DNA of 48,528 bases from Candidatus Aenigmatarchaeota archaeon (GTDB taxonomy: Archaea > Aenigmatarchaeota > Aenigmatarchaeia > Aenigmatarchaeales > Aenigmatarchaeaceae): positions 13,699-62,226 of the forward strand of contig WVXN01000001.1 in the NCBI GenBank assembly GCA_011773475.1, read 5' to 3'. Within the stretch, counting starts at the first letter, position 1. Every line of letters begins with the position of its first letter. Of the stretch, positions 235 through 36,621 are shown one piece after another. The position numbers and the translations under genes are program-made. A model generated the notes under the pieces. That model did no database searches, was not told where the DNA came from, and worked only from the letters and a program-made list of their open reading frames with translations.

Positions 235-320
235 GCAGGGGTAGCCAAGTCTGGTCTAAGGCGTAAGGCTTAGGACCTTATGGGTTAGTCCCTTCGTCGG
301 TTCAAATCCGGCCCCCTGCA
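235..320 (+). tRNA. tRNA-Leu (anticodon UAG), type II with long variable arm
   Basis: Acceptor GCAGGGG/CCCCTGC plus discriminator A. Anticodon stem TAAGG/CCTTA around loop CTTAGGA. Variable arm GGG-ttagt-CCC. T arm GTCGG-TTCAAAT-CCGGC. Confidence 0.9.
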
Positions 321-355
321 CATTACACATTCTTTACAGAGAGAGAACATGATAT
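301..355 (+). repeat. R0, reference copy of the island repeat: tRNA-Leu 3' end (T core TTCAAATCCGGCCCCCTGCA, 301-320) plus purine-rich M motif CAGAGAGAGAACATGATA (337-354)
   Basis: The same arrangement of T core, short spacer and M motif recurs at 1069, 3041 and 3951. Confidence 0.8.
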
Positions 356-382
356 TTAAGTTGAAAGTTCTAAATTGATTGT

Positions 383-1024
383 ATGAATTGGAAACAATTC
401 CTGAAGCCAGACTGGAGAAAGATTATAGTATTTGTGTTATTTTTATTTTACTCTATTTATGCATATTTTTCTGGGTTTCCTGCTCCTGGAGGGTGTGCAA
501 CACCAGGATTCTTAGAAATTTATTCGTTGTTTGCTTTTTTAATAACAGGACGTTTCTTTTTTTATTTTGGTACCTTATTAAATGTTATTTACATTTACCT
601 ACTCTCCTGTCTCATAATCTGGATTTACAGTAATTTTAGAAAAATAAAAAAGATTTATTGGGTTATGATTGTTTTAGTATTCTTAGTTATTCCTTACATC
701 ATATTTTATTTATATTCAATAACTTATTTTAATGAATCTTATTTTGCCTATTATTGTGGCTCTGCACTAAGTTCTGAAATGGCCAAAAGTAAATCTTGCA
801 GTATAGTTATGAAAAATCCTAATGGCTGTATAACTGTAGACCCATCCAGCATAGCTTTTGATGGAACATTATCTGATTTACCGCCATATGATGCTAATGG
901 AGATGGTAAAATAAATTCTTCAGATACTCTACAGTCATTATGTGAAGAATACTTTGGTGTCACAGGAGCGACAGCTGCAGAAAAAGCTTCTAATTGCAGA
1001 AAAGTTTGTGGGTGCACAGAATAA
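383..1024 (+). CDS. Polytopic membrane protein with Cys-rich C-terminal domain (hypothetical; cassette 1)
   Basis: ATG at 383. Several hydrophobic helices in the first ~120 aa. The C-terminal part contains an EF-hand/dockerin-like loop DANGDGKINSSD and multiple Cys. Confidence 0.6.
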   Translation: MNWKQFLKPDWRKIIVFVLFLFYSIYAYFSGFPAPGGCATPGFLEIYSLFAFLITGRFFFYFGTLLNVIYIYLLSCLIIWIYSNFRKIKKIYWVMIVLVFLVIPYIIFYLYSITYFNESYFAYYCGSALSSEMAKSKSCSIVMKNPNGCITVDPSSIAFDGTLSDLPPYDANGDGKINSSDTLQSLCEEYFGVTGATAAEKASNCRKVCGCTE

Positions 1025-1043
1025 ATACTTAATCCTAATTTGA

Positions 1044-1062
1044 GCAGTTAAAATGTAACTGC
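1044..1062 (+). terminator. Hairpin after cassette-1 gene
   Basis: GCAGTTA-aaatg-TAACTGC is a perfect 7-bp stem 20 nt after the stop. No functional proof. Confidence 0.3.
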
Positions 1063-1068
1063 TATGGT

Positions 1069-1119
1069 AAATCCGGCCCCCTGCATTTATTTCACTGGGG
1101 GACGGGACAAAGAATAATT
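1069..1119 (+). repeat. R1: direct repeat of tRNA-Leu 3' end (AAATCCGGCCCCCTGCA, 17/17) plus M-like CTGGGGGACGGGACAAAGAATAA
   Basis: Exact 17-nt GC-rich match to 304-320 in the same orientation as the tRNA. Confidence 0.9.
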
Positions 1120-1746
1120 TTATCTTTTTTGTCCTATAAAATAGAATGTTAAGTGATTACCAATTTCATTAGTATTAAAACCTATACCTTCTTTTAAGAA
1201 TTCAATACCTTCATTTGTCATTACCCTTCGATATTTTTCTATTTGTTTTGAATATTTTGGATTAGATAATAATTTTGGAGTTTTTAATTTTTCATTGCTT
1301 GTTATTGGGGGGTGTAGTGGAGCATCACCTATTAGATATCCGTTTGATTTTAATACTCTTACTGATTCGTTTATTGTCCGCACAACTTCTGAGTTATTTT
1401 CAAAGCAATCTAATAACCAGCCTATTGCAACTATATCAAAACTTTCATTATCAAATGGCAACTTTCTTGCATCTGCACAAATAGATGTTTCAGGTAATAT
1501 ACTGCTCAATTTACCTTTATATTCTAAATCAACTGTAACAATATTTTTTCTAAATTTTTTAGACTCATTGTATGCCTTTTCATCTAATTTTTCTTTAGTT
1601 CTTGCTCTTTTATCATATAAAAACATAAGATAAGCCATGCTAAAAATACAATGTTCACTTGCACCTACATCTAAAAGGGTTTTACTTTCCAAATCAGGTA
1701 TTTCTTTGAAAAAATCTCTACGAGTGTAAGGTTGAATTTTTTCCAT
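1120..1746 (-). CDS. Putative class I SAM-dependent methyltransferase (cassette 2)
   Basis: Degenerate motif I LLDVGASEH. Also VTVDLE, FDIVAIGWLL and VRVLKSNGYLI in the usual order and spacing of Rossmann-fold MTases. Confidence 0.5.
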   Translation of the reverse strand: MEKIQPYTRRDFFKEIPDLESKTLLDVGASEHCIFSMAYLMFLYDKRARTKEKLDEKAYNESKKFRKNIVTVDLEYKGKLSSILPETSICADARKLPFDNESFDIVAIGWLLDCFENNSEVVRTINESVRVLKSNGYLIGDAPLHPPITSNEKLKTPKLLSNPKYSKQIEKYRRVMTNEGIEFLKEGIGFNTNEIGNHLTFYFIGQKR

Positions 1747-1790
1747 ATTTTTTAGTTAAGGATAAATCTTTAAATGTCTATTTAAGTTAA

Positions 1791-1880
1791 GAGGGAAAGA
1801 TGATGAAAGAACGTAAACTGTCTTTTTTCTTCAAATTAAATCCCTTGCACATCTGATGTTCTTCACAGCTGACATGATGA
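1791..1880 (+). repeat. R2: composite M - decayed T core - M repeat
   Basis: GAGGGAAAGATGATGAAAGAACGTAAACTGTCTTTTTTCTTCAAAT (1791-1836) matches 5087-5132 at 40/46. Positions 1830-1849 match the tRNA T core at 14/20 in the same register. A second M-like motif CACAGCTGACATGATGA lies at 1864-1880. Confidence 0.65.
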
Positions 1881-1881
1881 T

Positions 1882-2889
1882 TTATTCAAAATTTAAACTA
1901 TTTATAATGAAATTAAAATCTGGTTTATATTTATCAAATGTAGATGAAGAAGCAAAGCACCTAATGAAAAAAACTGTTTTATCTTTTATCACAATTACTT
2001 GTAGAACATTAGAAACATCTGCATTTTTTAAAATTCCTTCATAAGCTTTATAACCATCTATTGTTTTCTCGCCTTGTGAAATAATTTCATAATTTTTATA
2101 ATTTTGATTTATCATCATGTCAAAATAATTTTTTAGAGTTAAACTAGAGTTTAAAGGACGTGTATCTAAAAGACAGTTAGTAGTTTCATTTTTTACAGGT
2201 CCTTTAATTTCAAGAGATGCTGTATATATGTCTTCTGGAGTGTATGTATTCATTCTTACAAGTGAAAGATTCCAGCCTTCCGGATGCTTAATTGAAAAAT
2301 TTAAGAGTTTATCAAAATATGTATTATCCTTCACTTCTCTTGTTTCAGAAATATTTGTGGAAACTCTTTTACAGTATTCCTTTTCCTCGATATTATTAAG
2401 ACCCTCACATAAACTAGGATCTTTTGTTTGTTTTGCGACATCCAATAAGCAATCACGTTCTGCCATCTCTTTCGTATAGCTCTGATAATAGTTATAACTC
2501 TCTTCCATATTTTTATCACAAGAAGATTTTATATCAATTGAGTAATCCATATACTCTGCTGCCGCACCTGCCTGATTGTAACATTGTCTTTTCAATTCAT
2601 CTAAACTTATCTTTTTCAATGAAGAAATAGAAGAGTAAGTTCTATCAACACAAGAATCGAATGTAGCTTTCTGTTCAGTATTCATTCCTGCCTGATAATT
2701 GGAAGACAAGATATTAGCATCAGAAGTAGTGATAATAAAATTTTGGTAAAATAGATATGTTAAGATGGAGATAATTACTACCAATATAATAATTGCAATA
2801 ATCAATTTTTTATGAGATTTTTTAGGTTTTATAGGCGGTTGTGTGGAAGTCGAACTTGGATCTATGTGTACATATTCTTCTTCTACCAT
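1882..2889 (-). CDS. N-terminally membrane-anchored extracytoplasmic protein (hypothetical; cassette 3)
   Basis: One hydrophobic helix (LIIAIIILVVIISILTYLF) follows a short charged N-terminus. The remainder is hydrophilic with paired Cys. No family recognised. Confidence 0.6.
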   Translation of the reverse strand: MVEEEYVHIDPSSTSTQPPIKPKKSHKKLIIAIIILVVIISILTYLFYQNFIITTSDANILSSNYQAGMNTEQKATFDSCVDRTYSSISSLKKISLDELKRQCYNQAGAAAEYMDYSIDIKSSCDKNMEESYNYYQSYTKEMAERDCLLDVAKQTKDPSLCEGLNNIEEKEYCKRVSTNISETREVKDNTYFDKLLNFSIKHPEGWNLSLVRMNTYTPEDIYTASLEIKGPVKNETTNCLLDTRPLNSSLTLKNYFDMMINQNYKNYEIISQGEKTIDGYKAYEGILKNADVSNVLQVIVIKDKTVFFIRCFASSSTFDKYKPDFNFIINSLNFE

Positions 2890-3029
2890 TTAAACACTAA
2901 TAAGAAATTATAATTTCTGACTTATAATACTCTTGTGTTTAAATTTCTTATCCTATTCAAAATAGTGAAGATGTTTATATCAGAAAATTTCTAATAAATG
3001 ATGGAATATCTGATTAGAAAACCGTAGGT

Positions 3030-3095
3030 TGTCTTTTTTCTTCAAATCCGGCCCCCTGCATTAACCTTATAGTGCGGTGCAGAGAGAAATAAAAT
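3030..3095 (+). repeat. R3: best-preserved repeat, linking both halves (TGTCTTTTTTCTTCAAAT + full T core) plus M motif
   Basis: 3041-3060 is 20/20 identical to tRNA-Leu 301-320. 3030-3047 is 18/18 identical to 1819-1836. GCAGAGAGAAATAAAAT lies at 3079-3095. Confidence 0.95.
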
Positions 3096-3108
3096 TTGAG
3101 ATATTCTT

Positions 3109-3873
3109 TCATTTTATTGTAAATGTTTCATCGGAGGTATCTGTATTAGTATTTACTCCATCGGAAACAATAATTTTAATTTGATAATCATCTGCTGGTT
3201 CATAAGACTCGTGAATAAACCAACTAAATTCAGACTCTTTTAAATTATCAAAAGTTAATGGTATTGCTAATTCAGATTCACGCATTTCTTCAGTAGTATA
3301 AGCTAGAGTATAAAATAATTCATCATCATCTGCATCATAACCTTCCCATTTAATAGTATAAGTTTTACCTCTTTCTAATTCTTCTCCTCCGTTAGGAAAA
3401 ATGATATTGACAGTTGGAACATTTCCACCCATTGATTCACGAATAAGAACCTTATCAAAATGCTTTATTAGTACTTCACTAGTTCCTTTTTTGGCGAGAA
3501 TTTCAAACATGAAAGGAACCCTGTCTGTTGGTACTGTCTCGTATCCTCCCGAACTTTCTATCATATAAAAGAAAGATACTGAAAATTTAAACTCATCCAA
3601 AACATTTCCATCTTTGTCTAAAAGAACTATCGAGTAGTTTCCATAACCTGGAGGAATATTCCCCATTGACGAAGGTTTTCTATCCTTAAAACAATGCCAA
3701 GGTTTATCTGCTACTGCTGAATCGTCTTTAAAAATTGTGCCAGATAAAAGCAACATACAATCTTCAGCTAAAGCCCCCTTTAAACCTTGTTGTTGCCCAC
3801 TTGTAGATGGTTCTTGTAAACATCCTGCTATAATAATTACAAACAAAAGGATGATAACTATAAGCCATTTCAT
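3109..3873 (-). CDS. Secreted lipoprotein-like protein (hypothetical; cassette 4)
   Basis: Signal peptide with lipobox-like IIAGC (MKWLIVIILLFVIIIAGCLQEP). The rest is hydrophilic. Confidence 0.6.
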   Translation of the reverse strand: MKWLIVIILLFVIIIAGCLQEPSTSGQQQGLKGALAEDCMLLLSGTIFKDDSAVADKPWHCFKDRKPSSMGNIPPGYGNYSIVLLDKDGNVLDEFKFSVSFFYMIESSGGYETVPTDRVPFMFEILAKKGTSEVLIKHFDKVLIRESMGGNVPTVNIIFPNGGEELERGKTYTIKWEGYDADDDELFYTLAYTTEEMRESELAIPLTFDNLKESEFSWFIHESYEPADDYQIKIIVSDGVNTNTDTSDETFTIK

Positions 3874-3950
3874 AAAATAATTTAGAAATTCTGACTTATA
3901 ATCTTTACAATCATTTTAATGACGTTGAACCGAACCTAAAGTCTGTAGCA

Positions 3951-3984
3951 GGCCCCCTGCATTCTTATTCACAGAGGGGAACGG
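3951..3984 (+). repeat. R4: truncated T core (GGCCCCCTGCA, 11/11) plus M motif CACAGAGGGGAACGG
   Basis: Exact GC-rich 11-mer equal to 310-320, followed 9 nt later by the purine-rich motif, as after the real tRNA. Confidence 0.8.
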
Positions 3985-4019
3985 TAAAAATTTAAAGTTT
4001 AGAATTTTCATTTTATAAC

Positions 4020-5099
4020 ATGTATGACACAATTGTCGTTGGTGCTGGAATTTCTGGCTTAATGACAGCATTAAGAATTTCTGAAAAAGGATATAAAACA
4101 TTAATTTTAGAAAAAACAAAAGAACTTAGTGCACCTCATCATGGTGCAGAAGCTATGAGTTGTAAAGAATTTGGTACTTTAGATATCATAAAAGATTCTA
4201 TAGTTAGAAAGTTTAACAGAATGGAAAACATATCACCAAATCGAACCCCAATCACTTTTTATGGAGGAAAACATATAGTTGTGAAACGTCCAAAATTAGA
4301 AAAATGTTTATTAGAAGAGGTTCTATCTAATAATGTTGATATAAAATTTTCTGAATCATTTAAAGGAATAAAAAACTCTAGAATTTTAACTGGAAAAAAT
4401 GATTATGAAGCAAATATTGTAGTGGGTGCTGATGGAGCTGTATCTACTGTTAGAAGGTTTTTAGGTATAAAAAAACCTGAGAAGATTATTAAATGTTTTC
4501 AGTATCATTTAATTCCTCCAGAAGATTATGATTTAGAAACTCATCGAGAAATTCTTTCAAACGAATTCTGTAAAGGTCTTTGTGTATGGATTACTCCTAC
4601 AGAAGAATCTGTATGGTTGGGGTTAGGAACTTTAGAAGGTAATCCTAAAGAAAAAATGCATAGTTTTGAAGTTACAAAGGATTTTATTGAAAAATCAAAA
4701 ATATTATCAAATAAATTTGGTTTTATTCCTTATGGCTATTCGGAGTCCTTTGTAAGCGATAATGTTACTCTTGTTGGAGATGCAGCCGGTTGTGTAAATC
4801 CTATAAGTGGAGGTGGACTAAGAAGAGCTGCACATTCTGCTGAATTAGCTTCAAAATATATAATTGAAACTTTAGAAACTAGTTCAAATTGTCTAAAAAA
4901 TTATCAGATAGAATGGGAAAGTATTTATAAAAAAGATTTTGACAGGAAAATAGAACTTAAAGATAGATATATGCGATTATTTGATTCCCAAATTAATAGT
5001 GGTTTTGAACAAATAATTAGTAATGAAATAGATGTTGGAAGCACTGAAGAAATTATGAAAATAATACTACAATTAGAAAATCAAAAGAGGGAAAGATAA
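4020..5099 (+). CDS. FAD-dependent oxidoreductase, geranylgeranyl-reductase-like (divergent second paralogue; cassette 5)
   Basis: Rossmann dinucleotide motif YDTIVVGAGISGLMTALRISEKGYKTLILEK. Also VVGADGAVSTVRR and LVGDAAGCVNPISGGGL. Confidence 0.7.
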   Translation: MYDTIVVGAGISGLMTALRISEKGYKTLILEKTKELSAPHHGAEAMSCKEFGTLDIIKDSIVRKFNRMENISPNRTPITFYGGKHIVVKRPKLEKCLLEEVLSNNVDIKFSESFKGIKNSRILTGKNDYEANIVVGADGAVSTVRRFLGIKKPEKIIKCFQYHLIPPEDYDLETHREILSNEFCKGLCVWITPTEESVWLGLGTLEGNPKEKMHSFEVTKDFIEKSKILSNKFGFIPYGYSESFVSDNVTLVGDAAGCVNPISGGGLRRAAHSAELASKYIIETLETSSNCLKNYQIEWESIYKKDFDRKIELKDRYMRLFDSQINSGFEQIISNEIDVGSTEEIMKIILQLENQKRER

Positions 5100-5144
5100 T
5101 GAAAGAATATAAACTGTCTTTTTTATTAGAATCCCTCTCGAGGC
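5087..5144 (+). repeat. R5: M motif plus decayed T-core-like sequence
   Basis: 5087-5132 matches 1791-1836 at 40/46. It overlaps the last codons and stop of the 4020..5099 CDS. The T-core part (ATTAGAATCCCTCTCGAGGC) is only weakly similar. Confidence 0.6.
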
Positions 5145-5149
5145 TCTTT

Positions 5150-6010
5150 TCATCTTGCAAACGCCAAAAGGAAAGCACCAAGTAACATGACTATTGCTCC
5201 AATAAGAACCTTCATTTTATGTTTTTTCTCCATCACTTCTTTAAAATAAAAAATTCCCCACAAGACCGCTATTAAGAGAGATAACTGTGTCAAAGGAAAT
5301 CCAATAGAAATTCCTAGATTGGCGACAGCAAATAAGGCAGATAAGTTTGCTATAACCCAAAAAATACCAGATAGAAATCCTTTCTTTGCATAATTTGAAA
5401 TATCAAGATTTTTAGAAAAGAATAAAGTCCACCCTGAATAGATCCAACCTGCAATCAATATTCCAAAAGACATAGAAAATAGAAATTGGTCTGGCGTTAA
5501 GTTTGATATTTTAAGTGGAACATATTGACTTCCAAATAAAAGTCCAGCTAATATAGCAACCATTATTCCACTAATTTTATATCGTCCCTTTGAACGTGAT
5601 AGAGATACAAACAGTATTCCAACCATTATTAAAAAAACCCCAAAAACTCCGAAATAGACTGAATTTAAATTTTCTTGAAAGAATAAAATTCCCCAAAGGA
5701 AAGAGACTAGAATTACAAAACTCATCCAGATTGCTGATGCTCTCCCCAAACCGATTTTTTTAACTGCAAGTATGGATATTATATTTCCTGTTGACCATAT
5801 AAGGCCTGAAACTATACCGAAAAGGTTTAAACTTAGAGAATAATTCAAGGTAATTGAAATCAAAAGACTAAAAAGAAAAATTCCATTACACATCAATAAT
5901 TGAAATTGAAATGGATTTAGTTTTTTTATTTTTTTCATAGGGACGAGATAGGTTCCCCAACCCATCGCGGCTATTAATGCAGTTAAAAAACCCAATACAA
6001 CATCAGTCAT
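5150..6010 (-). CDS. 10-TM DMT-superfamily-like transporter (cassette 6)
   Basis: About 10 evenly spaced hydrophobic helices over 286 aa, with a two-halves (5+5) organisation typical of drug/metabolite or sugar-porter DMT proteins. Confidence 0.55.
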   Translation of the reverse strand: MTDVVLGFLTALIAAMGWGTYLVPMKKIKKLNPFQFQLLMCNGIFLFSLLISITLNYSLSLNLFGIVSGLIWSTGNIISILAVKKIGLGRASAIWMSFVILVSFLWGILFFQENLNSVYFGVFGVFLIMVGILFVSLSRSKGRYKISGIMVAILAGLLFGSQYVPLKISNLTPDQFLFSMSFGILIAGWIYSGWTLFFSKNLDISNYAKKGFLSGIFWVIANLSALFAVANLGISIGFPLTQLSLLIAVLWGIFYFKEVMEKKHKMKVLIGAIVMLLGAFLLAFAR

Positions 6011-6061
6011 AAGTTAATAAATACTATATCATATACTTAAAATTGTAGGTGAATCTTCATG

Positions 6062-6078
6062 GAGGGAAAGATGATGAA
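6062..6078 (+). repeat. R6: isolated M motif GAGGGAAAGATGATGAA
   Basis: 17/17 identical to 1791-1807. Confidence 0.45.
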
Positions 6079-6141
6079 TAAGGACTTAAATTTTTAATAG
6101 TTTAAGTTTAATAAATGACTAAAAACCTAGCTGATGGTGCT

Positions 6142-6187
6142 TTAGAATTTATGAACTCATTCTAAGAATTTACTCTCATTTTAGAAT
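6142..6187. promoter_or_regulatory. Three TTAGAAT/ATTCTAA half-sites in alternating orientation upstream of the zinc-finger gene
   Basis: TTAGAAT at 6142-6148, ATTCTAA at 6159-6165, TTAGAAT at 6181-6187. The same half-site forms a palindrome at 27694-27710. Such motifs are frequent by chance in AT-rich DNA. Confidence 0.25.
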
Positions 6188-6244
6188 GAATTTTTTTAGA
6201 AAAAAACCGAAGAGTATAAAAATTTTTTTCTTCATATTTTTATT

Positions 6245-6475
6245 ATGTTTAAAAGGGTAGGCAACTGCATAATCTGTGGTGAAAAAACACAAAGATTCTG
6301 TGATGGTTGTGAGGTTTTTATTTGTGAAACACATTCTTTTAAACCATTTGCTGACAAAGAAATTATTCTTTGTAGAAGTTGTTGGAAAAATAAGAATGAA
6401 ATATTAAATAAAATAAAAGATTCAGCTAGTAGTAAAATTAATTTTTTCGATATTTCGCGTGATCATCCTTTTTAG
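6245..6475 (+). CDS. Small Cys-rich zinc-finger protein (cassette 7)
   Basis: Pattern CxxC-x7-CxxC-x4-CxxH ... CxxC (CIICGEKTQRFCDGCEVFICETH...CRSC), like a cross-brace zinc finger. Confidence 0.55.
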   Translation: MFKRVGNCIICGEKTQRFCDGCEVFICETHSFKPFADKEIILCRSCWKNKNEILNKIKDSASSKINFFDISRDHPF

Positions 6476-6488
6476 GAAGTATTCAGAG

Positions 6489-6573
6489 GGCCGTAGCCGA
6501 GATTCGAACTCGGAACAAGGGCTATCTGCTGTATATCCACAGACCCGTATGTTGCCATTACACCACTACGGCC
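6489..6573 (-). tRNA. tRNA-His (anticodon GUG) with encoded G-1 and a ~13-nt intron at 37/38
   Basis: Reverse complement is G-GCCGTAG...CTACGGC-C (G-1 opposite C73). Loop CTGTGG, then atatacagcagat, then A. 3' anticodon stem GCCCT. 4-nt variable loop. T arm CCGAG-TTCGAAT-CTCGG. Confidence 0.8.
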
Positions 6574-8074: not shown

Positions 8075-8242
8075 GTAAGAAATTTGTAATTACTTCTTTA
8101 TTAAGTTTCTTTTTTAAAGAATATAAAAATCCTTTTTTCTAAATCTCAACAATTTTATAAACATATATCATCCTACTTTCATAATCTCCATATTTTAACT
8201 AGAAAAAGAATCTTCAAATGTTTAATTTTTTTATATTGTCAT

Positions 8243-8746
8243 TTAAAGCTTCAAATCAATTTCTTCTTCAGTTAAAATCTCCATTTCGACCTCAGTTTCC
8301 AGTTCTAAATCTATTGTGTCCATTTCTAAAGTTTCTATACTATTCATAGCTTCGGCAAAAGGTTCGAGTTCTAAGGTTTCAGGAGTTTGAGAAATAGGTT
8401 GTTGAATAAAATAATAACTTGATATTAAAGCTAAACCAGCTATTAAAATTACACTAATACTAAGAAATATGACAACCCTATTGTATCCAGGATGTAGAAG
8501 TTTTTTTCCAGAGTTTGATATTTTATAATAGACCCATTTTCTACCAGGTCTTTCGACTCTCTCTATTAAATCTGATTTTTCCAAAATATTCAAATGCTCA
8601 GAAACAGTTGTGACATGTTTGTTCAAATGTCTAGACAATTCAGATGCTGTCATGGGTCTTTCTTCTAATGCTCTTAGGATATCTATCCTAGTGTCAGCTG
8701 TCACAACTTTTAACATCCGTCTTGAAATTTTGAATTCTTTTTCCAT
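8243..8746 (-). CDS. Membrane-tethered ArsR-type winged-helix regulator with acidic extracytoplasmic tail
   Basis: N-terminal wHTH (TRIDILRALEERPMTASELSRHLNKHVTTVSEHLNILEKSDLIERVERPGRKWVYYKIS). Single TM helix (VVIFLSISVILIAGLALISSYYF). Tail ...ELETEVEMEILTEEEIDLKL. Confidence 0.8.
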   Translation of the reverse strand: MEKEFKISRRMLKVVTADTRIDILRALEERPMTASELSRHLNKHVTTVSEHLNILEKSDLIERVERPGRKWVYYKISNSGKKLLHPGYNRVVIFLSISVILIAGLALISSYYFIQQPISQTPETLELEPFAEAMNSIETLEMDTIDLELETEVEMEILTEEEIDLKL

Positions 8747-8788
8747 AATATTTTTATAGAATAAACATGTTTAAATGTTTTCAATTAT

Positions 8789-8816
8789 TTAGGGTCTTTA
8801 CCCTAAGAATTCTTAT
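8789..8816. promoter_or_regulatory. Two adjacent palindromes in the divergent promoter region
   Basis: TTAGGGT-cttt-ACCCTAA (8789-8806) overlaps TAAGAATTCTTA (8803-8816). They lie between the wHTH-TM gene and the secreted-protein operon. Confidence 0.3.
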
Positions 8817-8863
8817 CTTTTTAAATCAATCTTATGTCTCCTTATAATTATGGGGTGAAAAAA

Positions 8864-9343
8864 ATGAAAAAAGAATTTGCATTAATAATACCGTTGATAT
8901 TAATGTCAGCATTCGCAGTACCAGCTTTAGCAGCGGAATCACCACAATATGGACCTAAAACTATAACTATTGTGGATTACATGGGAGTGGAAGATGTAAC
9001 AGAACATAAGTGGGACGTTATTTATAACTCAAATTATTATGCAACCAGAATATACAGTAAAGGTCAGAGACTATTAGGATGGGAAATAGAAAAAAATAAG
9101 CATAGTATTGTGTCAGAGAGAGATTTTGTTTCAGATACAGAAACAAACCCACCTTTATGTGGTTATAAAACAGTCACTTATTTCGATTATGAGGGATATG
9201 ATGTCAAAGAACATAATTGGAAATGTTTATATGACAATGATTTCTATGTAATAAAAATATACACTGAAAATGGAAATAACATGTTGTTAGGTTGGCAGAT
9301 ATTTAGAAACGGACAATTGGTATCAACAAGAGCTTTTATTTAA
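8864..9343 (+). CDS. Secreted protein made of two tandem ~65-aa repeats (hypothetical)
   Basis: Start moved to ATG 8864, which has GGGGTGA 7 nt upstream. Signal peptide MKKEFALIIPLILMSAFAVPALA. Internal repeat YGPKTITIVDYMGVEDVTEHKWDVIYNSNYYATRIYSKGQRLLGWEI versus CGYKTVTYFDYEGYDVKEHNWKCLYDNDFYVIKIYTENGNNMLLGWQI. Confidence 0.7.
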   Translation: MKKEFALIIPLILMSAFAVPALAAESPQYGPKTITIVDYMGVEDVTEHKWDVIYNSNYYATRIYSKGQRLLGWEIEKNKHSIVSERDFVSDTETNPPLCGYKTVTYFDYEGYDVKEHNWKCLYDNDFYVIKIYTENGNNMLLGWQIFRNGQLVSTRAFI

Positions 9344-9433
9344 GATGAAGGATCAGCCTTCATCTTTTTGTTATTACCATAAAAAATCTCAAATTTTAAA
9401 TATTGGTAAAAAAAATTATTATGAGGTGAAAAA

Positions 9434-10249
9434 ATGAACAAAAATCGTATAATATTTGGTTTAACAACTTTACTTATAACAGCAATCATCGCATCTTCTA
9501 TAGCACTAGCATTTCGTATGGATATTGAAGGAACAGTGTCTAAAGAAATAGTAGAGCTTGGGGAAACTATTACTATAACAGTTCATGCATTTGATATCAC
9601 TGATAGGGATGATTGGACATGGCATGGAACAGTAGTAAGATATGGGGCAGACGGAAGCGAAACTGTTGTAGCAGAAGCTGATGGATCAGTCGGAACCTAT
9701 GATGCAGCAACACCTATATGGACTCATGATTTTACAGCACCCTCATCTTTTCCTGTTGACACATTCAAATGGCATGGAGAAGTGTCTTATGTGAAATATG
9801 TTGTAAGGGTTAGATTCAATAACCCAAAGAAGTTAACAGGAGCTGGACTAGCAAAGACATTTATTTTAGTTAATACAAGACAAGACATAATAAATTTTTT
9901 GAGCAATCCGATGCTTGTCAAAGTAAATAATTTAATAAATGCAGCTAACAGTGAATTGACAACGAAAATAGATGCTAGAATAGCTTCATGCACAGAAGGA
10001 GGCAACACAGACGAAGACGTAGCAACAAGGTGGGAAGCAATAAAACCAGGAATAAATGATATAAAAACAGATGCAGAAGCTATCAAAGATAAAATAACTA
10101 CTGCAATAGGCGACTTGAATATCAAGAATATCAAAGAAGCAGACGATCTGATTGTAGATTTCTGGAATGTACATGGGACAACTAGAAATGAATATTACGA
10201 CTTAATTGAAGATACTTTAGAAAAATGTGCAGAACCTGTAGGTGAATAA
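9434..10249 (+). CDS. Secreted or anchored protein (hypothetical)
   Basis: GAGGTGA lies 7 nt before ATG 9434. N-terminal hydrophobic segment (IIFGLTTLLITAIIASSIALA). Beta-rich N-terminal half and helical C-terminal half. Confidence 0.65.
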   Translation: MNKNRIIFGLTTLLITAIIASSIALAFRMDIEGTVSKEIVELGETITITVHAFDITDRDDWTWHGTVVRYGADGSETVVAEADGSVGTYDAATPIWTHDFTAPSSFPVDTFKWHGEVSYVKYVVRVRFNNPKKLTGAGLAKTFILVNTRQDIINFLSNPMLVKVNNLINAANSELTTKIDARIASCTEGGNTDEDVATRWEAIKPGINDIKTDAEAIKDKITTAIGDLNIKNIKEADDLIVDFWNVHGTTRNEYYDLIEDTLEKCAEPVGE

Positions 10250-10250
10250 G

Positions 10251-10502
10251 ATGAAAACAACATATATAGCAGTTATTGTGATAATAGTGATAATACTACT
10301 ACTTGCAGGTTTCCTCTCTTTAAGAGGCAGTGAAGTTTTTCCAACAACTACTACAACTCCACCAATTACAACAACAGAAACAGAATTGGGGAGCTCATTA
10401 AAAGATATGGAAGGTTTGACCGACGGGATATTGAAACTTCCAGCAGAAACAGAAATCGAGATCGAAGAATTTACTGAAGAAACATTTGAGTTGAAACTTT
10501 AG
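10251..10502 (+). CDS. Small single-pass membrane protein with Thr/Pro linker and acidic ...ELKL tail
   Basis: Start moved to ATG 10251 (AGGTGA 7 nt upstream; the track start is a GTG). TM helix, then PTTTTTPPITTTET, then tail AETEIEIEEFTEETFELKL homologous to the tail of 8243..8746. Confidence 0.65.
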   Translation: MKTTYIAVIVIIVIILLLAGFLSLRGSEVFPTTTTTPPITTTETELGSSLKDMEGLTDGILKLPAETEIEIEEFTEETFELKL

Positions 10503-10532
10503 TTTTTTTATTTTTTCTATTATTTTATTGCC

Positions 10533-34380: not shown

Positions 34381-35457
34381 ATGAAAGCAATATCTGCTAT
34401 TATAGTTATCATATTAGTTCTAATGATAGTGGTTGCTCTAGCTGCTTTGTCTTATACATTCTTTTCAGGAATATTTACATCAACAACAACCACAACTGAG
34501 GAATCAATAGAAAAGACAACTACAAGTCTCTTAGCTCAGATGAAAATAGAAGGTGCATCTAATAATAATATTTATGTAAGAAATACTGGGCAAACAGACA
34601 TTTCAGACTTATCTGTTTATATCGATGATGAACTAGTAGAAGTTACAATGGTTCCTCCGACTATAGGACCTGGAGAAGTTGGAACAGTAAATATAGAAGA
34701 GTTTGTAGGAAAAAGAGAGGTTGATGTAAAGATAACAACAAGCCAAGGATCTGTTACATTTACAGAAAAACTTGAAGAAATGACTTTTTGTGATAATCCT
34801 GATGTTGTTTTGTGTTTAACATTTGATGAAGGATCTGGAACTGTTGCTTATGATAGTTCGCCGTCTGGAAACGATGGTGAATTAAAGAACTATACAGGGT
34901 CTTGTGGCGGAACTGCTTGCCCTGTATGGGTTAGCGGAAAGTATGGTCATGCTTTAGAGTTTGATGGAATAGGTGATTATGTTGAAGTTCAACATCATGA
35001 AAGTTTAAATCTTAGTACTGATGATTTTACAATGATGGCTTGGTTTAAAGCTGAGAATGATGCTAGTATTGAGCAACCAGATATCATAGGAAAATGGTAT
35101 GGGACTAATCCTGGTTATTATTTTTGGGTGGATAATCAAGGAAACTTAGGAATTGATTTTTTTAATGGCAATAGTACTTCCATATATTCTCTTGAACAGG
35201 TTAATGATACTACTTGGCATCATGGAGTAGTGACTAGAAATGGCATAACATTTAGACTTTATCTTAATGGAGAAATAGCAGGTGAAACCTCTTCCGTTAC
35301 TACCATAAATGCAGATAATACTTTCACTCTGCATATAGGTGGCGACAACTTAGACAATGATTACTATTTCCATGGTTTTATTGATGAAGTCATAATCTTA
35401 AACAGATCACTAACAGCAGCAGAAATAGCAGAAATTTATAATAGTTATAATTTATAA
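34381..35457 (+). CDS. Archaeal type IV pilin-like protein with C-terminal LamG/concanavalin-like domain
   Basis: Class III signal peptide-like N-terminus MKAISAIIVIILVLMIVVALAA. C-terminal LCLTFDEGSGTVAYDSSPSGNDGEL...GHALEFDGIGDYVEV...FTMMAWFK...FRLYLNGE...IDEVIILNRSLTAAEI (Laminin_G_3-like). Confidence 0.7.
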   Translation: MKAISAIIVIILVLMIVVALAALSYTFFSGIFTSTTTTTEESIEKTTTSLLAQMKIEGASNNNIYVRNTGQTDISDLSVYIDDELVEVTMVPPTIGPGEVGTVNIEEFVGKREVDVKITTSQGSVTFTEKLEEMTFCDNPDVVLCLTFDEGSGTVAYDSSPSGNDGELKNYTGSCGGTACPVWVSGKYGHALEFDGIGDYVEVQHHESLNLSTDDFTMMAWFKAENDASIEQPDIIGKWYGTNPGYYFWVDNQGNLGIDFFNGNSTSIYSLEQVNDTTWHHGVVTRNGITFRLYLNGEIAGETSSVTTINADNTFTLHIGGDNLDNDYYFHGFIDEVIILNRSLTAAEIAEIYNSYNL

Positions 35458-36621
35458 CAAATGTTTAGCTAAAGAAATAAGATGTGGTTTTCTCATAAGA
35501 ACTTTTGCAAAAACAGAAAGTTTTGAACCTCTAGTAAATTCTATAACATCTGAAGGTTCTAATAATCCTAATAAATCATTTAAATCCTTATCAGATAGCT
35601 TTTCAACAACTTCTCTTAGTTTTTCAATTTTTCTCATTTTGTTCCCTCTTTTTTCCCACCACAAACCATTGAATTTTGATAAAGCTTTTTTAGAAACATC
35701 ATTTTTCTTTAAACATTCTGAAATAATATCTGCTGCCAACTGCCCAGAAACAACAGCCTCCTTTATTCCACCACCGTGTATGGGGTTGACATGATGAGCA
35801 GCTTCTCCGCAAACCAAGAATCCATTAGCAACCATGTCTTTTTCCATTCCTCCAACAGGAACACAACCAGCATTAACTTCTATTATTGACCCTTTCTTGA
35901 TTTGAGGATGGGAATCAAGAAAATTCTCTAAATAAAATTTTGCAGTTTTTTCTCCAGGTACTATTCCGACTCCCACATTAGCTCTGTCCTTTCCTTTAGG
36001 AAAGACCCAACAATAACCACGCTTGGCTATCTCGTTTCCCAGATAAATATCAATGAGTTCTGGATCAATATCTATTCCAGACATTTCATATTGTAAACAA
36101 GAATCAATAAGATGTGGTCTAGAAAAGATATTCAATGCTTGCTTTCTTAGAGGAGATTCTGCTCCAGTTGCACAAACAATCATTTTTGCTTTTTCCTCGA
36201 ATTTTTCTCCAAGAAATTCTCCTTTAACACCAACAAAATAACCATTATTTTCTATTAAATTTGAAATAAACGAATTTGCTTGAATATCTACTCCAGCCTT
36301 TACAGCCCTTTCTGCTAACCACTTATCAAAAACCTTTCTCTCAAGAATAAAGCCTCCGTGACTTAAAACAATTTCAAGATATTTTCCATTTGGAGAATAA
36401 ACTCTACAACCCTTAATTTTTTGTGCAATACATCTGTCAGGAATTTTTCCTATTAATTCCTGTGTACCTTCGCTCAAGCCTTCTCCACATCTTTTTGGGG
36501 AGCCTATTTCTTGCCTTCTGTCAAAGATTTTTACTGAAAATCCGCTTTCTACTAGTTTTTTTCCACAAGCAGTCCCTGCTGGACCTGCTCCTATAACTAT
36601 TACATCCCACATATTACTCAT
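35452..36621 (-). CDS. Geranylgeranyl reductase (digeranylgeranylglycerophospholipid reductase family)
   Basis: WDVIVIGAGPAGTACGKKL, RCGEGLS and VCGEAAHHVNPIHGGGI. Confidence 0.85.
   Translation of the reverse strand: MSNMWDVIVIGAGPAGTACGKKLVESGFSVKIFDRRQEIGSPKRCGEGLSEGTQELIGKIPDRCIAQKIKGCRVYSPNGKYLEIVLSHGGFILERKVFDKWLAERAVKAGVDIQANSFISNLIENNGYFVGVKGEFLGEKFEEKAKMIVCATGAESPLRKQALNIFSRPHLIDSCLQYEMSGIDIDPELIDIYLGNEIAKRGYCWVFPKGKDRANVGVGIVPGEKTAKFYLENFLDSHPQIKKGSIIEVNAGCVPVGGMEKDMVANGFLVCGEAAHHVNPIHGGGIKEAVVSGQLAADIISECLKKNDVSKKALSKFNGLWWEKRGNKMRKIEKLREVVEKLSDKDLNDLLGLLEPSDVIEFTRGSKLSVFAKVLMRKPHLISLAKHLL

Follow-up and report, generated by a model that had tools for sequence, protein, structure and literature searches.

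The interval between tRNA-Leu and tRNA-His in the 48,528-nt stretch of DNA analyzed here (the window), taken from contig WVXN01000001.1 of a Candidatus Aenigmatarchaeota archaeon (a small DPANN archaeon), appears to be a site-specific integration hotspot where integrase-less, att-flanked single-gene cassettes would have been added or exchanged singly by an integrase acting in trans. We give this reading a probability of about 0.7. By this mechanism, a tyrosine integrase would target the terminal 17 to 20 nt of the tRNA gene, leaving copies of that end (T copies) as att cores. The integrase gene would contain its own attP, as in the type I or "suicidal" topology, and recombination at the core would cut it into int(N) and int(C). 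The int(N) piece, consisting of a ribosome-binding site, about 13 codons, and the core (the M-P-T unit), would form the right edge of the insert, and its left edge would consist of the core followed by the initial int(C) codons, seen as the purine-rich P' motif. Units in the window have no integrase body and therefore cannot move by themselves; they would be cassettes comparable to cis-mobilizable elements, with integrase coming from autonomous relatives like the 4- to 5-kb elements of related genomes, and some of their att sites would have decayed later. The interval is made up as follows.

235..320/321, + strand: tRNA-Leu(UAG), intron-free (ARAGORN; Rfam, 57.8 bits)
321..348, + strand: P' arm after tRNA-Leu, 16-nt spacer plus CAGAGAGAGAAC (337-348), core-frame reading ..GPLHITHSLQREN (compare ..HYYSQRL.. 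in the L100 integrase); putative remnant of the int(C) start
383..1024, + strand: cargo 1, 213 aa, by eye with a hydrophobic N terminus and a cysteine-rich C terminus; weak homologue in L083 (32%), no Pfam or PHROG match
1044..1062, + strand: P-arm inverted repeat (hairpin) just 5' of core copy 1 (z = -2.8 for the fold of 1040-1110), kin to arms in L089 and L090
1069..1085, + strand: T core copy 1 (17/17), sharing its register with the 17-nt att repeat that bounds the tRNA-Ser element of L095
1086..1108, + strand: P' arm, TTTATTTCA plus CTGGGGGACGGGAC, 86% over 51 nt versus the tRNA-Leu flank in L092
1120..1746, - strand: cargo 2, SAM-dependent methyltransferase (Pfam PF08241, E = 1.2e-9)
1789..1856, + strand: type B M-P-T unit with GAGGGA (ribosome-binding-site-like), ATGATG at 1800, and micro-ORF MMKERKLSFFFKLNPLHI with its stop; core 1830-1849 decayed (14/20); putative int(N) and att remnant
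1882..2889, - strand: cargo 3, 335 aa, PsbP-like domain (Pfam PF18933)
3016..3060, + strand: type A P arm and intact T core (3041-3060, 20/20), in-frame reading ENRRLSFFFKSGPLH with its stop, 92 to 98% identity to L089, L090, and L091 units; ribosome-binding site and start codon both decayed
3061..3090, + strand: P' arm, 19-nt spacer plus CAGAGAGAAAT, translation PYSAVQRE (compare LPYGAVQK in L091)
3109..3873, - strand: cargo 4, 254 aa, Kre9/KNH Ig-like domain (Pfam PF10342)
3896..3961, + strand: second P-arm type (~55 nt) and 11-nt T core (3951-3961), in-frame NLKSVAGPLH
3962..3984, + strand: P' arm, 10-nt spacer plus CAGAGGGGAACGG, translation SYSQRGT
4020..5099, + strand: cargo 5, FAD-dependent oxidoreductase, divergent geranylgeranyl reductase (GGR) paralogue (Pfam)
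5085..5144, + strand: type B M-P-T unit with decayed core, overlapping the cargo 5 stop codon; 88% identity to 1789-1836
5150..6010, - strand: cargo 6, DMT/sugar-transporter family protein (Pfam PF06800, E = 1.3e-27)
6061..6087, + strand: lone M motif (GGAGGGAAAGATGATGAA), remaining unit lost
6245..6475, + strand: B-box-like zinc-finger gene (Pfam), homologues in L001, L002, and L093
6488..6572, - strand: tRNA-His(GUG), 16-nt intron (ARAGORN; Rfam)

The original prediction that the 3'-terminal 20 nt of tRNA-Leu (301-320, the T core) recur along the interval was confirmed. The 20-mer TTCAAATCCGGCCCCCTGCA was found at 301-320 and 3041-3060 with 0 mismatches each and at 1066-1085 with 3 mismatches, i.e., 17/17 from position 1069, and it had 0 matches in 100 dinucleotide shuffles. 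The shorter GGCCCCCTGCA occurs four times (310, 1075, 3050, and 3951), on the + strand only, compared to an expected 0.09, and this includes the predicted copy at 3951-3961. Two further copies described as decayed, at 1830-1849 (14/20) and ~5125-5144, proved to be members of a 48-nt repeat family (1789-1836, 3000-3047, and 5085-5132; 88% identity between the first and the third), and the M motif noted in the sixth gap recurs at 6061-6082. Purine-rich motifs follow the cores at 337-348, 1095-1108, 3080-3090, and 3972-3984. The same repeat unit is present in independent public assemblies; therefore, the repeats are not an assembly artefact.

These repeats have an in-frame structure. The M motif comprises a ribosome-binding site and start codon followed by ~13 codons that run in frame into the tRNA core, and the purine-rich motif 3' of each core prolongs this reading frame. 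Types A and B both show GGAGGG, 4 to 5 nt, ATG, and an ORF entering the core in a single frame, and the differences between them are a 6-nt indel that preserves the frame and synonymous changes (TTG/CTG, TCC/TCG/TCT). The P arm at 3896..3961 has a homologue in L095 (11549-11610), beside unrelated cargo, that differs at synonymous third positions. P and P' arm types reassort between loci. The window repeats would be att cores accompanied by pieces of int(N) and of the start of int(C), produced by site-specific recombination at tRNA-Leu. The earlier observation of no integrase in view thus stands for intact genes, but the M motif would be an int(N) start and the purine-rich motif an int(C) start.

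Split integrase genes were found in relatives. Contigs L095 and L096 are 100% identical except for a 4,926-bp insertion at tRNA-Ser, edged by the 17-nt repeat AAATCCTGCCGTCGGCG. The PF00589 integrase ORF of the L095 element is uninterrupted and stays in frame all the way between the core and its called ATG, and at the other end of the insertion a ribosome-binding site and a 39-codon ORF enter the core in the same frame. The attachment site of this element thus lies inside its own tyrosine integrase gene, which integration divides in two. An intact 360-aa integrase is encoded by L100, a 4.1-kb contig that is probably circular because of its 30-nt terminal overlap. Its integrase 5' end aligns to the window M unit through a 13-nt exact match, AAAACCGTAGGTT, whose distance from a tRNA-3'-like core is the same in both, with YYSQRL downstream. 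In L098, an int(C) ORF is open through the tRNA-Leu(TAA) 3' end. Two genes of the L095 element also occur in the element that lies left of the M-P-T unit in L088. The integrases match PF00589 and are XerA-like (4a8e, 5hxy), and the relatives' integrase gave no PF16795 match; an SSV-family identity was rejected on these grounds. A tRNA-Leu-specific member of this family may have made the window junctions. Searching for the unit elsewhere, as had been proposed, turned up both the unit and an aligning integrase, but no intact or split integrase with the tRNA-Leu core was found.

The seven ORFs between the two tRNAs have the orientations originally given, and Pfam supports the methyltransferase, FAD oxidoreductase, DMT/sugar transporter, and B-box-like zinc-finger descriptions, adding the PsbP-like and Kre9/KNH domains. 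Cargo 5 shares 28% identity with the window GGR at 35452-36621, which carries GGR_cat. The zinc-finger gene is probably resident rather than a cassette, because it is conserved in relatives. Comparison of the interval among related genomes bore out the expected variability: synteny is lost precisely at the 3' end of tRNA-Leu and returns at tRNA-His, the far edge of the variable interval, and distant relatives have the two tRNAs side by side. In three comparisons (L089 versus L090, L102 versus L103, and L093 versus L002), the boundaries are shared and the cargo between them differs, and near-identical relatives have units replaced between the same boundaries. A good example of import is L095, where tRNA-Leu terminates in CCCCCCGCA and its downstream copies in CCCCCTGCA; the copies were therefore imported and not locally duplicated. 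Of the relatives whose interval is complete, the closest is L002; it carries 6.7 kb of different genes with no T copies between tRNA-Leu and tRNA-His, which means that turnover does not always leave scars. The records of several relatives give a groundwater or sediment origin, not hyperthermophile habitats.

No recombinase domain was detected among the window ORFs scanned (Pfam, PHROGs), and integrase bodies were absent from the window as well as from every tRNA-Leu array of the relatives. Several results weigh against the favored reading, among them the missing tRNA-Leu-core integrase and the scar-free interval of L002. All public unit copies end 0 to 14 codons past the core, the L091 variant at 130-149 enters the core in a different frame, and only 7 of 12 P' spacers, counted by eye, preserve the frame. 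None of 5.8 billion protein clusters shared three 5-mers with MMKEENRRLSFFFKSGPLH..., viral-contig scans gave no match, and no circular junction or empty site was observed for any single-gene unit.

The strongest alternative, which we consider unlikely, is serial integration followed only by decay. Elements of at least 4 kb at tRNA-Leu would have been trapped by their split integrase and deleted, in a streamlined genome, down to useful genes and scars, so that single-gene units never moved as units. Visible decay (1830-1849, 5125-5144, the M-only site at 6061, and the 11-nt cores) fits this course, as do the scar-free arrays in L002 and L093, an int(C) beside a truncated tRNA-Ser core in L101, and a multi-gene element in L088 that ends in the same M-P-T unit. 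That split integrases carry out "gene capture" is also already established (PMC8371274). However, four trends argue against it. First, no int(C) body remnant was found beside >20 tRNA-Leu cores on at least 8 contigs (tblastn, E = 1), though int(N) pieces survive in ~10. Second, the edges are uniform: P' remnants of different subfamilies tend to stop soon after (S/V)QR codons (by eye), and M units all start at the ribosome-binding site, abutting unrelated cargo directly. Third, the same P arms stand beside unrelated cargo. Finally, spacing is always one gene (387 to 1,211 nt). These trends suggest that the single-gene units moved as units and were not trimmed afterwards. Of the two readings offered originally, repeated integration and decay at a tRNA hotspot is upheld by the relatives' split integrase (L095/L096, L100), and the integron is not.

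It is very improbable that the units serve an RNA or peptide function, as tRNA-like processing or termination signals or as a conserved 19- to 22-aa micro-protein. The ORF is kept with synonymous changes, and a hairpin lies just 5' of the core in each P arm, with a sequence that varies by arm type. However, the copies match no tRNA and no Rfam family at E <= 1, folding of the type A unit does not surpass that of shuffles (z = -1.5), and the units are on the + strand throughout whereas cargo is on either strand. The peptide C terminus is not conserved, the core of one copy (L091 130-149) is read in a different frame, and in L100 this sequence forms the 5' end of an intact integrase gene.

We give equally little credence to homologous recombination alone, in which the tRNAs and short cores would anchor allelic replacement after DNA uptake and no site-specific recombinase would take part. 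The L102/L103 replacement boundaries within conserved flanks and the scar-free L002 agree with this, but cores of 11 to 20 nt are very short for it, and imported cores differ from the resident tRNA. Moreover, every junction carries fragments of the integrase gene, and a polymorphic integrase element shares the core register; both point to site-specific recombination. The least credible explanation is a true integron, in which IntI captures attC-bearing cassettes at attI: mostly single-gene units, the imperfect inverted symmetry of the site that recurs between them (core CCCCCTGCA ... CAGAGGGGG; fold of 1040-1110), and integrons in archaeal MAGs, reported in PMC9668308, speak for it, but the window has no IntI and no PF00589 protein, no R''/R' (RYYYAAC/GTTRRRY) ends or attC-type site were seen by eye, the repeated site combines the 3' end of a tRNA with fragments of an integrase gene, 4 of the 7 genes are on the opposite strand, and related autonomous elements have a XerA-like integrase with an internal attP. 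An integron identity was rejected for lack of IntI, lack of an attC-type site by eye, and mixed cargo orientation, whereas the integron-like behavior first described, i.e., single genes with conserved ends and no integrase body that are replaced between near-identical genomes, is partly borne out.

The closest known systems are the type I ("suicidal", SSV-type) archaeal integrases of the SSV1, pTN3, and pT26-2 families, in which attP also lies within the integrase ORF (PMC8371274, PMC7253208). As there, integration at a tRNA 3' end places int(N) at attR and int(C) at attL (here L095, with the intact gene in L100). The differences are a PF00589, XerA-like integrase compared to PF16795 in all described suicidal families, AT-rich DPANN hosts, and a very short int(N) of ~13 to 39 codons before the core. 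In addition, tandem arrays of suicidal-integrase elements are reported as not observed (PMC8371274, PMC7253208), whereas 6 kb here contains as many as six junctions, with single-gene units without int(C). Prochlorococcus islands built by tycheposons are similar in that new arrivals push older elements off the tRNA, leaving scattered partial tRNA copies and integrase fragments in a hypervariable island of a streamlined genome with accessory cargo, but each tycheposon has its own intact integrase and spans several kb (10.1101/2020.12.28.424599). The units here measure 0.4 to 1.2 kb and have one gene and no integrase body, and their att arms are supplied by the integrase gene itself. The CIMEs of streptococci are att-flanked, lack recombination genes, and accrete in tandem with autonomous elements at an ICE att site using an integrase in trans. 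They resemble the window units in all of this, but they are larger, bacterial, and ICE-derived, and their mobility in trans is demonstrated whereas here it is inferred. Integrons likewise hold single-gene accessory cassettes, each with its own recombination site and a recombinase outside the cassette. They differ in having IntI, attI, and Pc, in using an attC hairpin where the site here is a tRNA 3' end with integrase-gene fragments, and in that the mixed orientation here leaves each gene needing its own promoter. The pdif modules of Acinetobacter plasmids depend on the host XerC/D system acting at dif-like sites of alternating orientation. They too are small modules of 1 to 2 genes with short recombinase sites and no recombinase of their own, but the tRNA cores here are co-oriented and the likely recombinase, though XerA-like, is element-borne. 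The interval would thus be a variant of tRNA-anchored island building whose units behave like integrase-less cassettes.

The array lies between tRNA-Leu(UAG) and a tRNA-His with an intron, both located with ARAGORN and Rfam. The original prediction had claimed that the last 20 nt of tRNA-Leu (the T core) recur downstream, and this was borne out at three sites, all on the plus strand, where dinucleotide shuffles gave an expectation of 0 copies. A repeat search of the window also recovered a 48-nt family, so that the repeated thing is larger than a tRNA fragment. Each repeat unit is made up of M (GGAGGG or AGAGGG, 4 to 5 nt, and ATGATG; a ribosome-binding site [RBS] and start codon), P (the arm before the core), and the tRNA-derived T core. 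The features are as follows.

About 235-320: tRNA-Leu(UAG)
1069-1085, plus strand: 17/17 copy of the tRNA-Leu 3′ end
3041-3060, plus strand: exact copy of the 20-nt tRNA-Leu 3′ end
3951-3961, plus strand: 11/11 copy of the tRNA-Leu 3′ end
1789-1836, 3000-3047, and 5085-5132: 48-nt repeat family
3016-3060: P arm and T core of a type A unit
1789-1856 and 5085-5144: M-P-T units, type B
6061-6087: solitary M, without P and T
6488-6572, minus strand: tRNA-His with intron

An intact tRNA at one end, with direct repeats of its 3′ part, is the layout of a tRNA-targeted island. The seven ORFs between the two tRNAs, their orientations (three plus, four minus), and the descriptions of their cargo were upheld by ORF calls and Pfam. 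The unit at 3061-3961 is edged by the 20/20 and 11/11 cores, and that at 321-1085 by the tRNA and the 17/17 core. Neither contains a recombinase gene, and both fit the layout of integrase-less, att-flanked (cis-mobilizable) units, with predicted att sites and no recombination genes. GC content is uniform across the window (0.28 to 0.36), and the remainder is ordinary archaeal housekeeping (CysRS, enolase, eIF2-alpha, GINS, primase, PCNA, SMC/ScpAB, AspRS, and RNase HII). Two GGR-type FAD oxidoreductases are present; the one at 35452-36621 carries the GGR catalytic domain, and the cassette copy at 4020-5099 is 28% identical to it and lacks that Pfam match. A second variable spot, 2.4 kb at 8137-10520 between an aldehyde dehydrogenase and a PALP enzyme, is missing from the syntenic regions of three relatives (L001, L002, and L091). 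An ArsR-type regulator (8243-8746) and three ORFs that match no family (8834-10502) lie within it, and no att repeat was noticed there.

Read from the ATG, the type A and type B units are all open through the core in a single frame, MMKEENRRLSFFFKSGPLH. Relative to type A, type B lacks 6 nt without loss of frame and carries synonymous changes (TTG/CTG and TCC/TCG/TCT). Because M-P-T comprises an RBS, a start codon, and ~19 conserved codons ending at the att core, we read it as the leftover of a split integrase gene, that is, its N-terminal half, int(N). The window has three such int(N)-plus-core units (1789-1856, 3016-3060, and 5085-5144); of the other half, int(C), just the first 5 to 15 codons remain after window cores. 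The purine-rich motifs that follow the window cores, translated in the core's frame, give SYSQRGT, SLQREN, and AVQRE and are predicted to be the first int(C) codons. Three results from relatives support this reading: the L095 and L100 elements described below, and locus L098, whose int(C) ORF continues without a stop across a tRNA-Leu(TAA) 3′ end. Every P arm has an inverted repeat that ends 1 to 12 nt before the core, with a sequence that varies by arm type (window 1044-1062 and 3017-3033; L091 95-127; L095 7771-7795; L100 55-75). Examples are GAAAACC-GTA-GGTTGTC, GGAGAAAC-GTA-GTTTCTCC, and CAACCTCTT-CAAA-AGAGGTTG. These repeats suggest a conserved DNA or RNA element within the int(N) coding region.

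Autonomous elements with integrases of this family were found in two relatives.

L095, 2870-7812 (JGI Ga0373630_0000363): 4.9-kb integrative element at tRNA-Ser(CGA), absent from L096
L100, 1-4142 (Logan SRR20958178_21368): 4.1 kb, 30-nt terminal overlap, intact 360-aa integrase

L095 and L096 derive from separate samples and match at 100% identity, except that L095 carries a 4,926-bp insertion at the tRNA-Ser 3′ end. The 17-nt repeat AAATCCTGCCGTCGGCG, whose register is that of window copy 1, edges this insertion, which starts with a PF00589 integrase whose reading frame continues without interruption between the core and the annotated ATG. At its opposite end (attR), an RBS and 39 codons run into the core in the same frame; this is int(N), and int(C) adjoins the tRNA. 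Since the ORF keeps one frame across the 17-nt repeat, the integrase gene spans attP and is partitioned by integration. L100 is probably a circle (a plasmid or virus-like element), given its terminal overlap; its gene layout is that of the L095 element, and its integrase belongs to the same clade. The 360-aa ORF has a tRNA-3′-like core at codons 21 to 30, and its 5′ end aligns with the window unit: the two share 13 consecutive identical nt, AAAACCGTAGGTT, equally distant from the core, and ..YYSQRL.. lies downstream. No target tRNA for the L100 core was found among the loci examined. An attP within the integrase ORF was shown in these relatives, not in the window. In hmmscan searches (E ≤ 1), P0053, P0057, and the reconstructed L095 integrase matched PF00589 (E = 1e-17 to 5e-25) and not PF16795, and the nearest solved structures to the family integrases are XerA proteins (4a8e and 5hxy). 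The suicidal-type topology of the L095 element, in which the integrase gene contains its own attP, falls outside the PF16795 family. In L088, the element on the left side of the M-P-T unit is multi-gene and has two genes in common with the L095 element. In L082, at 3914-3963, a tRNA-Ser 3′ end is followed 8 nt on by a second, different tRNA-Ser 3′ end (TTCAAATCCTGCCGTCGGCG), which is a solo att scar of the tRNA-Ser element type.

The nearest named relatives of the window organism, a DPANN archaeon, are Aenigmatarchaeota metagenome-assembled genomes (MAGs), and the comparison of their tRNA-Leu to tRNA-His intervals, proposed in the original prediction, gave different contents between the same tRNAs. 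The closest relative with a complete interval (L002/L081) has flanking genes that are ~85% identical, and its synteny with the window ends exactly at the tRNA-Leu 3′ end and restarts at tRNA-His. Its interval of 6.7 kb holds ~11 unrelated genes and no T copies. The interval of L093 is just 1.2 kb, and tRNA-Leu and tRNA-His are direct neighbors in two distant relatives (L084 and L085). These differences in content and length mean that the interval is a hypervariable insertion hotspot. The entire window architecture is present in JABAOH010003830 (L092 plus L091), and more arrays occur in L082, L095 to L097, and L104/L105; across all arrays the core-to-core spacing is 387 to 1,211 nt. Metagenomes were scanned with the 20-mer lacking a preceding G, that is, outside a tRNA. 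Five loci were recovered, all sharing one 66-nt unit, GGAGGGAAAGATGATGAAAGAAGAAAACCGTAGGTTGTCCTTTTTCTTCAAATCCGGCCCCCTGCA, which forms the right end of a gene-bearing segment in each. Segments with a visible left boundary contain one gene and have tRNA-Leu or another T core on the left; that of L088 is multi-gene.

The tRNA genes themselves vary among close relatives. The window tRNA-Leu (235-321) has no intron, that of L081 (10470-10587) and L083 has a 24-nt insert in the D-arm region, and that of L082 (6830-6959), L085 (2035-2160), L092, and L095 (10873-11001) has an insert of ~40 nt near the anticodon; ARAGORN missed the intron-containing genes. A 16-nt tRNA-His intron is present in the window, L001, and L093 and absent in L002, L091, and L095. 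In L084 and L085, tRNA-His directly follows tRNA-Leu on the same strand, which indicates that tRNA-His was inverted in the window lineage, so that the variable interval is now flanked by two tRNA 3′ ends pointing toward each other. Another tRNA-His in L084, partial and located after a run of N, was set aside as a scaffolding artifact. The sense 3′ flank of tRNA-His (L002 11576-11605; L095 15010-15038) contains CTTGTGACCGACG, which is like the arm type CCACTTGTGATTCAGTTCCGAC after tRNA-Leu cores. This hints that tRNA-His may be a further integration target, although searches gave no copies of a tRNA-His core.

Several comparisons support recombination at the core. First, tRNA-Leu of L095 ends in CCCCCCGCA and its two downstream copies end in CCCCCTGCA, so the copies arrived with foreign DNA. 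Second, at least four P-arm types and several types of the arm after the core (P′) are variously combined across loci. By-eye comparison placed the same P arm beside unrelated cargo in two cases (window 3896-3950 and L095 11549-11599; L082 7640-7664 and L095 12400-12425). Third, loci with boundaries in common differ in the units they hold. An example is the pair L102 and L103, which are 95 to 98% identical on both sides and differ solely in the first unit after tRNA-Leu, each ending in its own decayed core. L089 and L090 have in common a PCMT gene and both unit boundaries, a core on the left and an M-P-T unit on the right, and their cargo is different and in opposite orientations; L093 has one extra unit beside the tRNA compared to L002. 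The leftmost core in L089 (reverse strand, 3870-3957) and L090 (528-616) is a 5′-truncated, intron-containing tRNA-Leu fragment directly after the PCMT gene, and the P arm of window copy 1 (1040-1068) is related to it.

The absence of a recombinase from the window, as originally noted, was confirmed: the scanned ORFs of the 48.5 kb gave no match to PF00589, PF16795, or serine recombinases (Pfam and PHROGs), and tblastn with six family integrases gave none either. A candidate hidden integrase at 9434-10249 (271 aa) was rejected, with no Pfam or PHROG match and no recombinase motifs by eye. The same tblastn search (E = 1) detected no int(C) pseudogene remnants or bodies beside tRNA-Leu cores, its sole matches being the tRNA-Ser-site genes of L095 and L101. 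An int(C) body thus accompanies no tRNA-Leu core, whereas int(N) survives ~10 times. In the proposed search for the unit in genomes, plasmids, and viruses, the five metagenome loci share it, and viral contigs yielded no attP-bearing virus or plasmid with the tRNA-Leu unit (exact-pattern and protein-based scans). The P-arm-plus-core pattern had no match in genome contigs, and no autonomous tRNA-Leu-specific partner was detected at the DNA or protein level in the collections scanned. The micro-ORF, at 20 aa, is too short as a protein query, and a 52-aa chimeric query returned no candidate. Outside tRNAs, the 20-mer occurred in genome contigs only in L086, from a GC-rich bacterium and probably by chance, and in L087, from a MAG labeled Nanoarchaeum sp. 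SW.3.93. The latter (3003-3029) is a solo core that has an unrelated gene on either side and no tRNA in its vicinity, preceded by TGCAGGAA, which resembles a 5′ acceptor strand.

The feature is genuine and recurs, and we read it as integration at a tRNA by a self-splitting integrase, which in DPANN archaea yields integron-like arrays whose units hold one gene and no integrase. Our main reading, to which we give a probability of roughly 70%, is that the repeats are scars left at a tRNA-Leu hotspot by integrases of this family, both att sites and pieces of the integrase gene, and that units there are exchanged one gene at a time. Two accounts of the integrase-less units stand. In one, full elements integrated and were later trimmed, as would fit the clear ongoing decay at 1830-1849, 5125-5144, and 6061 and the existence of scar-free arrays. 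The other is mobility of the units in trans, as integrase-less att-flanked cassettes, which seems to us slightly short of an even chance and which four observations favor. First, int(C) is totally absent while int(N) persists. Second, M always begins at the RBS, directly abutting unrelated cargo. Third, P′ remnants of different subfamilies tend, by eye, to stop soon after the QR codons. Finally, the units hold one gene each. Indirect support for movement in trans comes from the unlike cargo within common boundaries in L089/L090 and L102/L103 and from the imported core variants of L095. In relatives the tRNA-Ser site lies 2 to 7 kb upstream, and an integrase element at that site would be a candidate for acting in trans. 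Split or permuted tRNA genes were dismissed because the copies have neither a T-stem partner nor a tRNA body. A search for tRNA and other RNA families (Rfam, E ≤ 1) assigned none to the core copies, the fold z-scores of the units are weak except at 1040-1110, and the window contains no copies of the tRNA-His, -Cys, -Pro, or -Met 3′ ends.

A broader proposal, which we advance only tentatively, is that DPANN archaea of this lineage run an integron-like gene capture based on a self-splitting integrase gene, whose suicidal topology would have an origin separate from the SSV/PF16795 lineage and outside hyperthermophiles. The recombination site of each single-gene cassette would be the integrase 5′ end, comprising the RBS, int(N), the tRNA-Leu core, and the opening codons of int(C). 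Small plasmids with XerA-like suicidal integrases, acting in trans, would capture, excise, and exchange cassettes at tRNA-Leu. The autonomous partner would then carry an ORF running through AAATCCGGCCCCCTGCA into a PF00589 domain. If integrase-less cassettes are mobilized in trans, archaea would have a counterpart to the gene capture of integrons or cis-mobilizable elements (CIMEs).

The genomes of DPANN archaea are tiny, and the organisms are host dependent. Little is understood of how accessory genes are acquired and exchanged among them, and this locus offers a concrete, sequence-defined mechanism, in which one-gene units with att-scar edges differ even between near-identical genomes. Suicidal integrases have been described as all carrying PF16795, as having arisen once, and as a feature of hyperthermophiles, and tandem arrays of their elements were stated as not seen (PMC8371274, PMC7253208). 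An XerA-like PF00589 integrase with gene-splitting topology bears on the first two claims, and elements in low-GC DPANN genomes bear on the third. In a full-text literature search, one incidental co-mention was the sole paper to bring suicidal integrases and DPANN archaea together. The topology of the relatives' integrases is like that in SSV1, pTN3, and pT26-2, but they match PF00589 only and are closest to XerA structures; this means that the family works like the SSV type without being a member of it. Prochlorococcus tycheposons are likewise islands built by successive integrations at a tRNA, which leave partial tRNAs and integrase fragments (10.1101/2020.12.28.424599). The usual islands of tRNA-targeted tyrosine integrases contain the integrase gene, whereas the window island has none. 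An integron has IntI, attI, and Pc beside its array, attC sites with R″/R′ ends and a bulged hairpin, and cassettes that are mostly co-oriented and promoterless. In contrast, the window has no recombinase among the scanned ORFs of its 48.5 kb, its array begins at a tRNA gene, its sites are tRNA derived without RYYYAAC/GTTRRRY ends by eye, and its cargo is split three to four between the strands. A true integron is excluded on these grounds (no IntI, tRNA-derived sites, and mixed orientation). Of the two possibilities raised in the original prediction, an integron-like platform or repeated integration at a tRNA hotspot, what stands is integrase scars at a hotspot, together with the integron-like trait of single-gene, integrase-less units.
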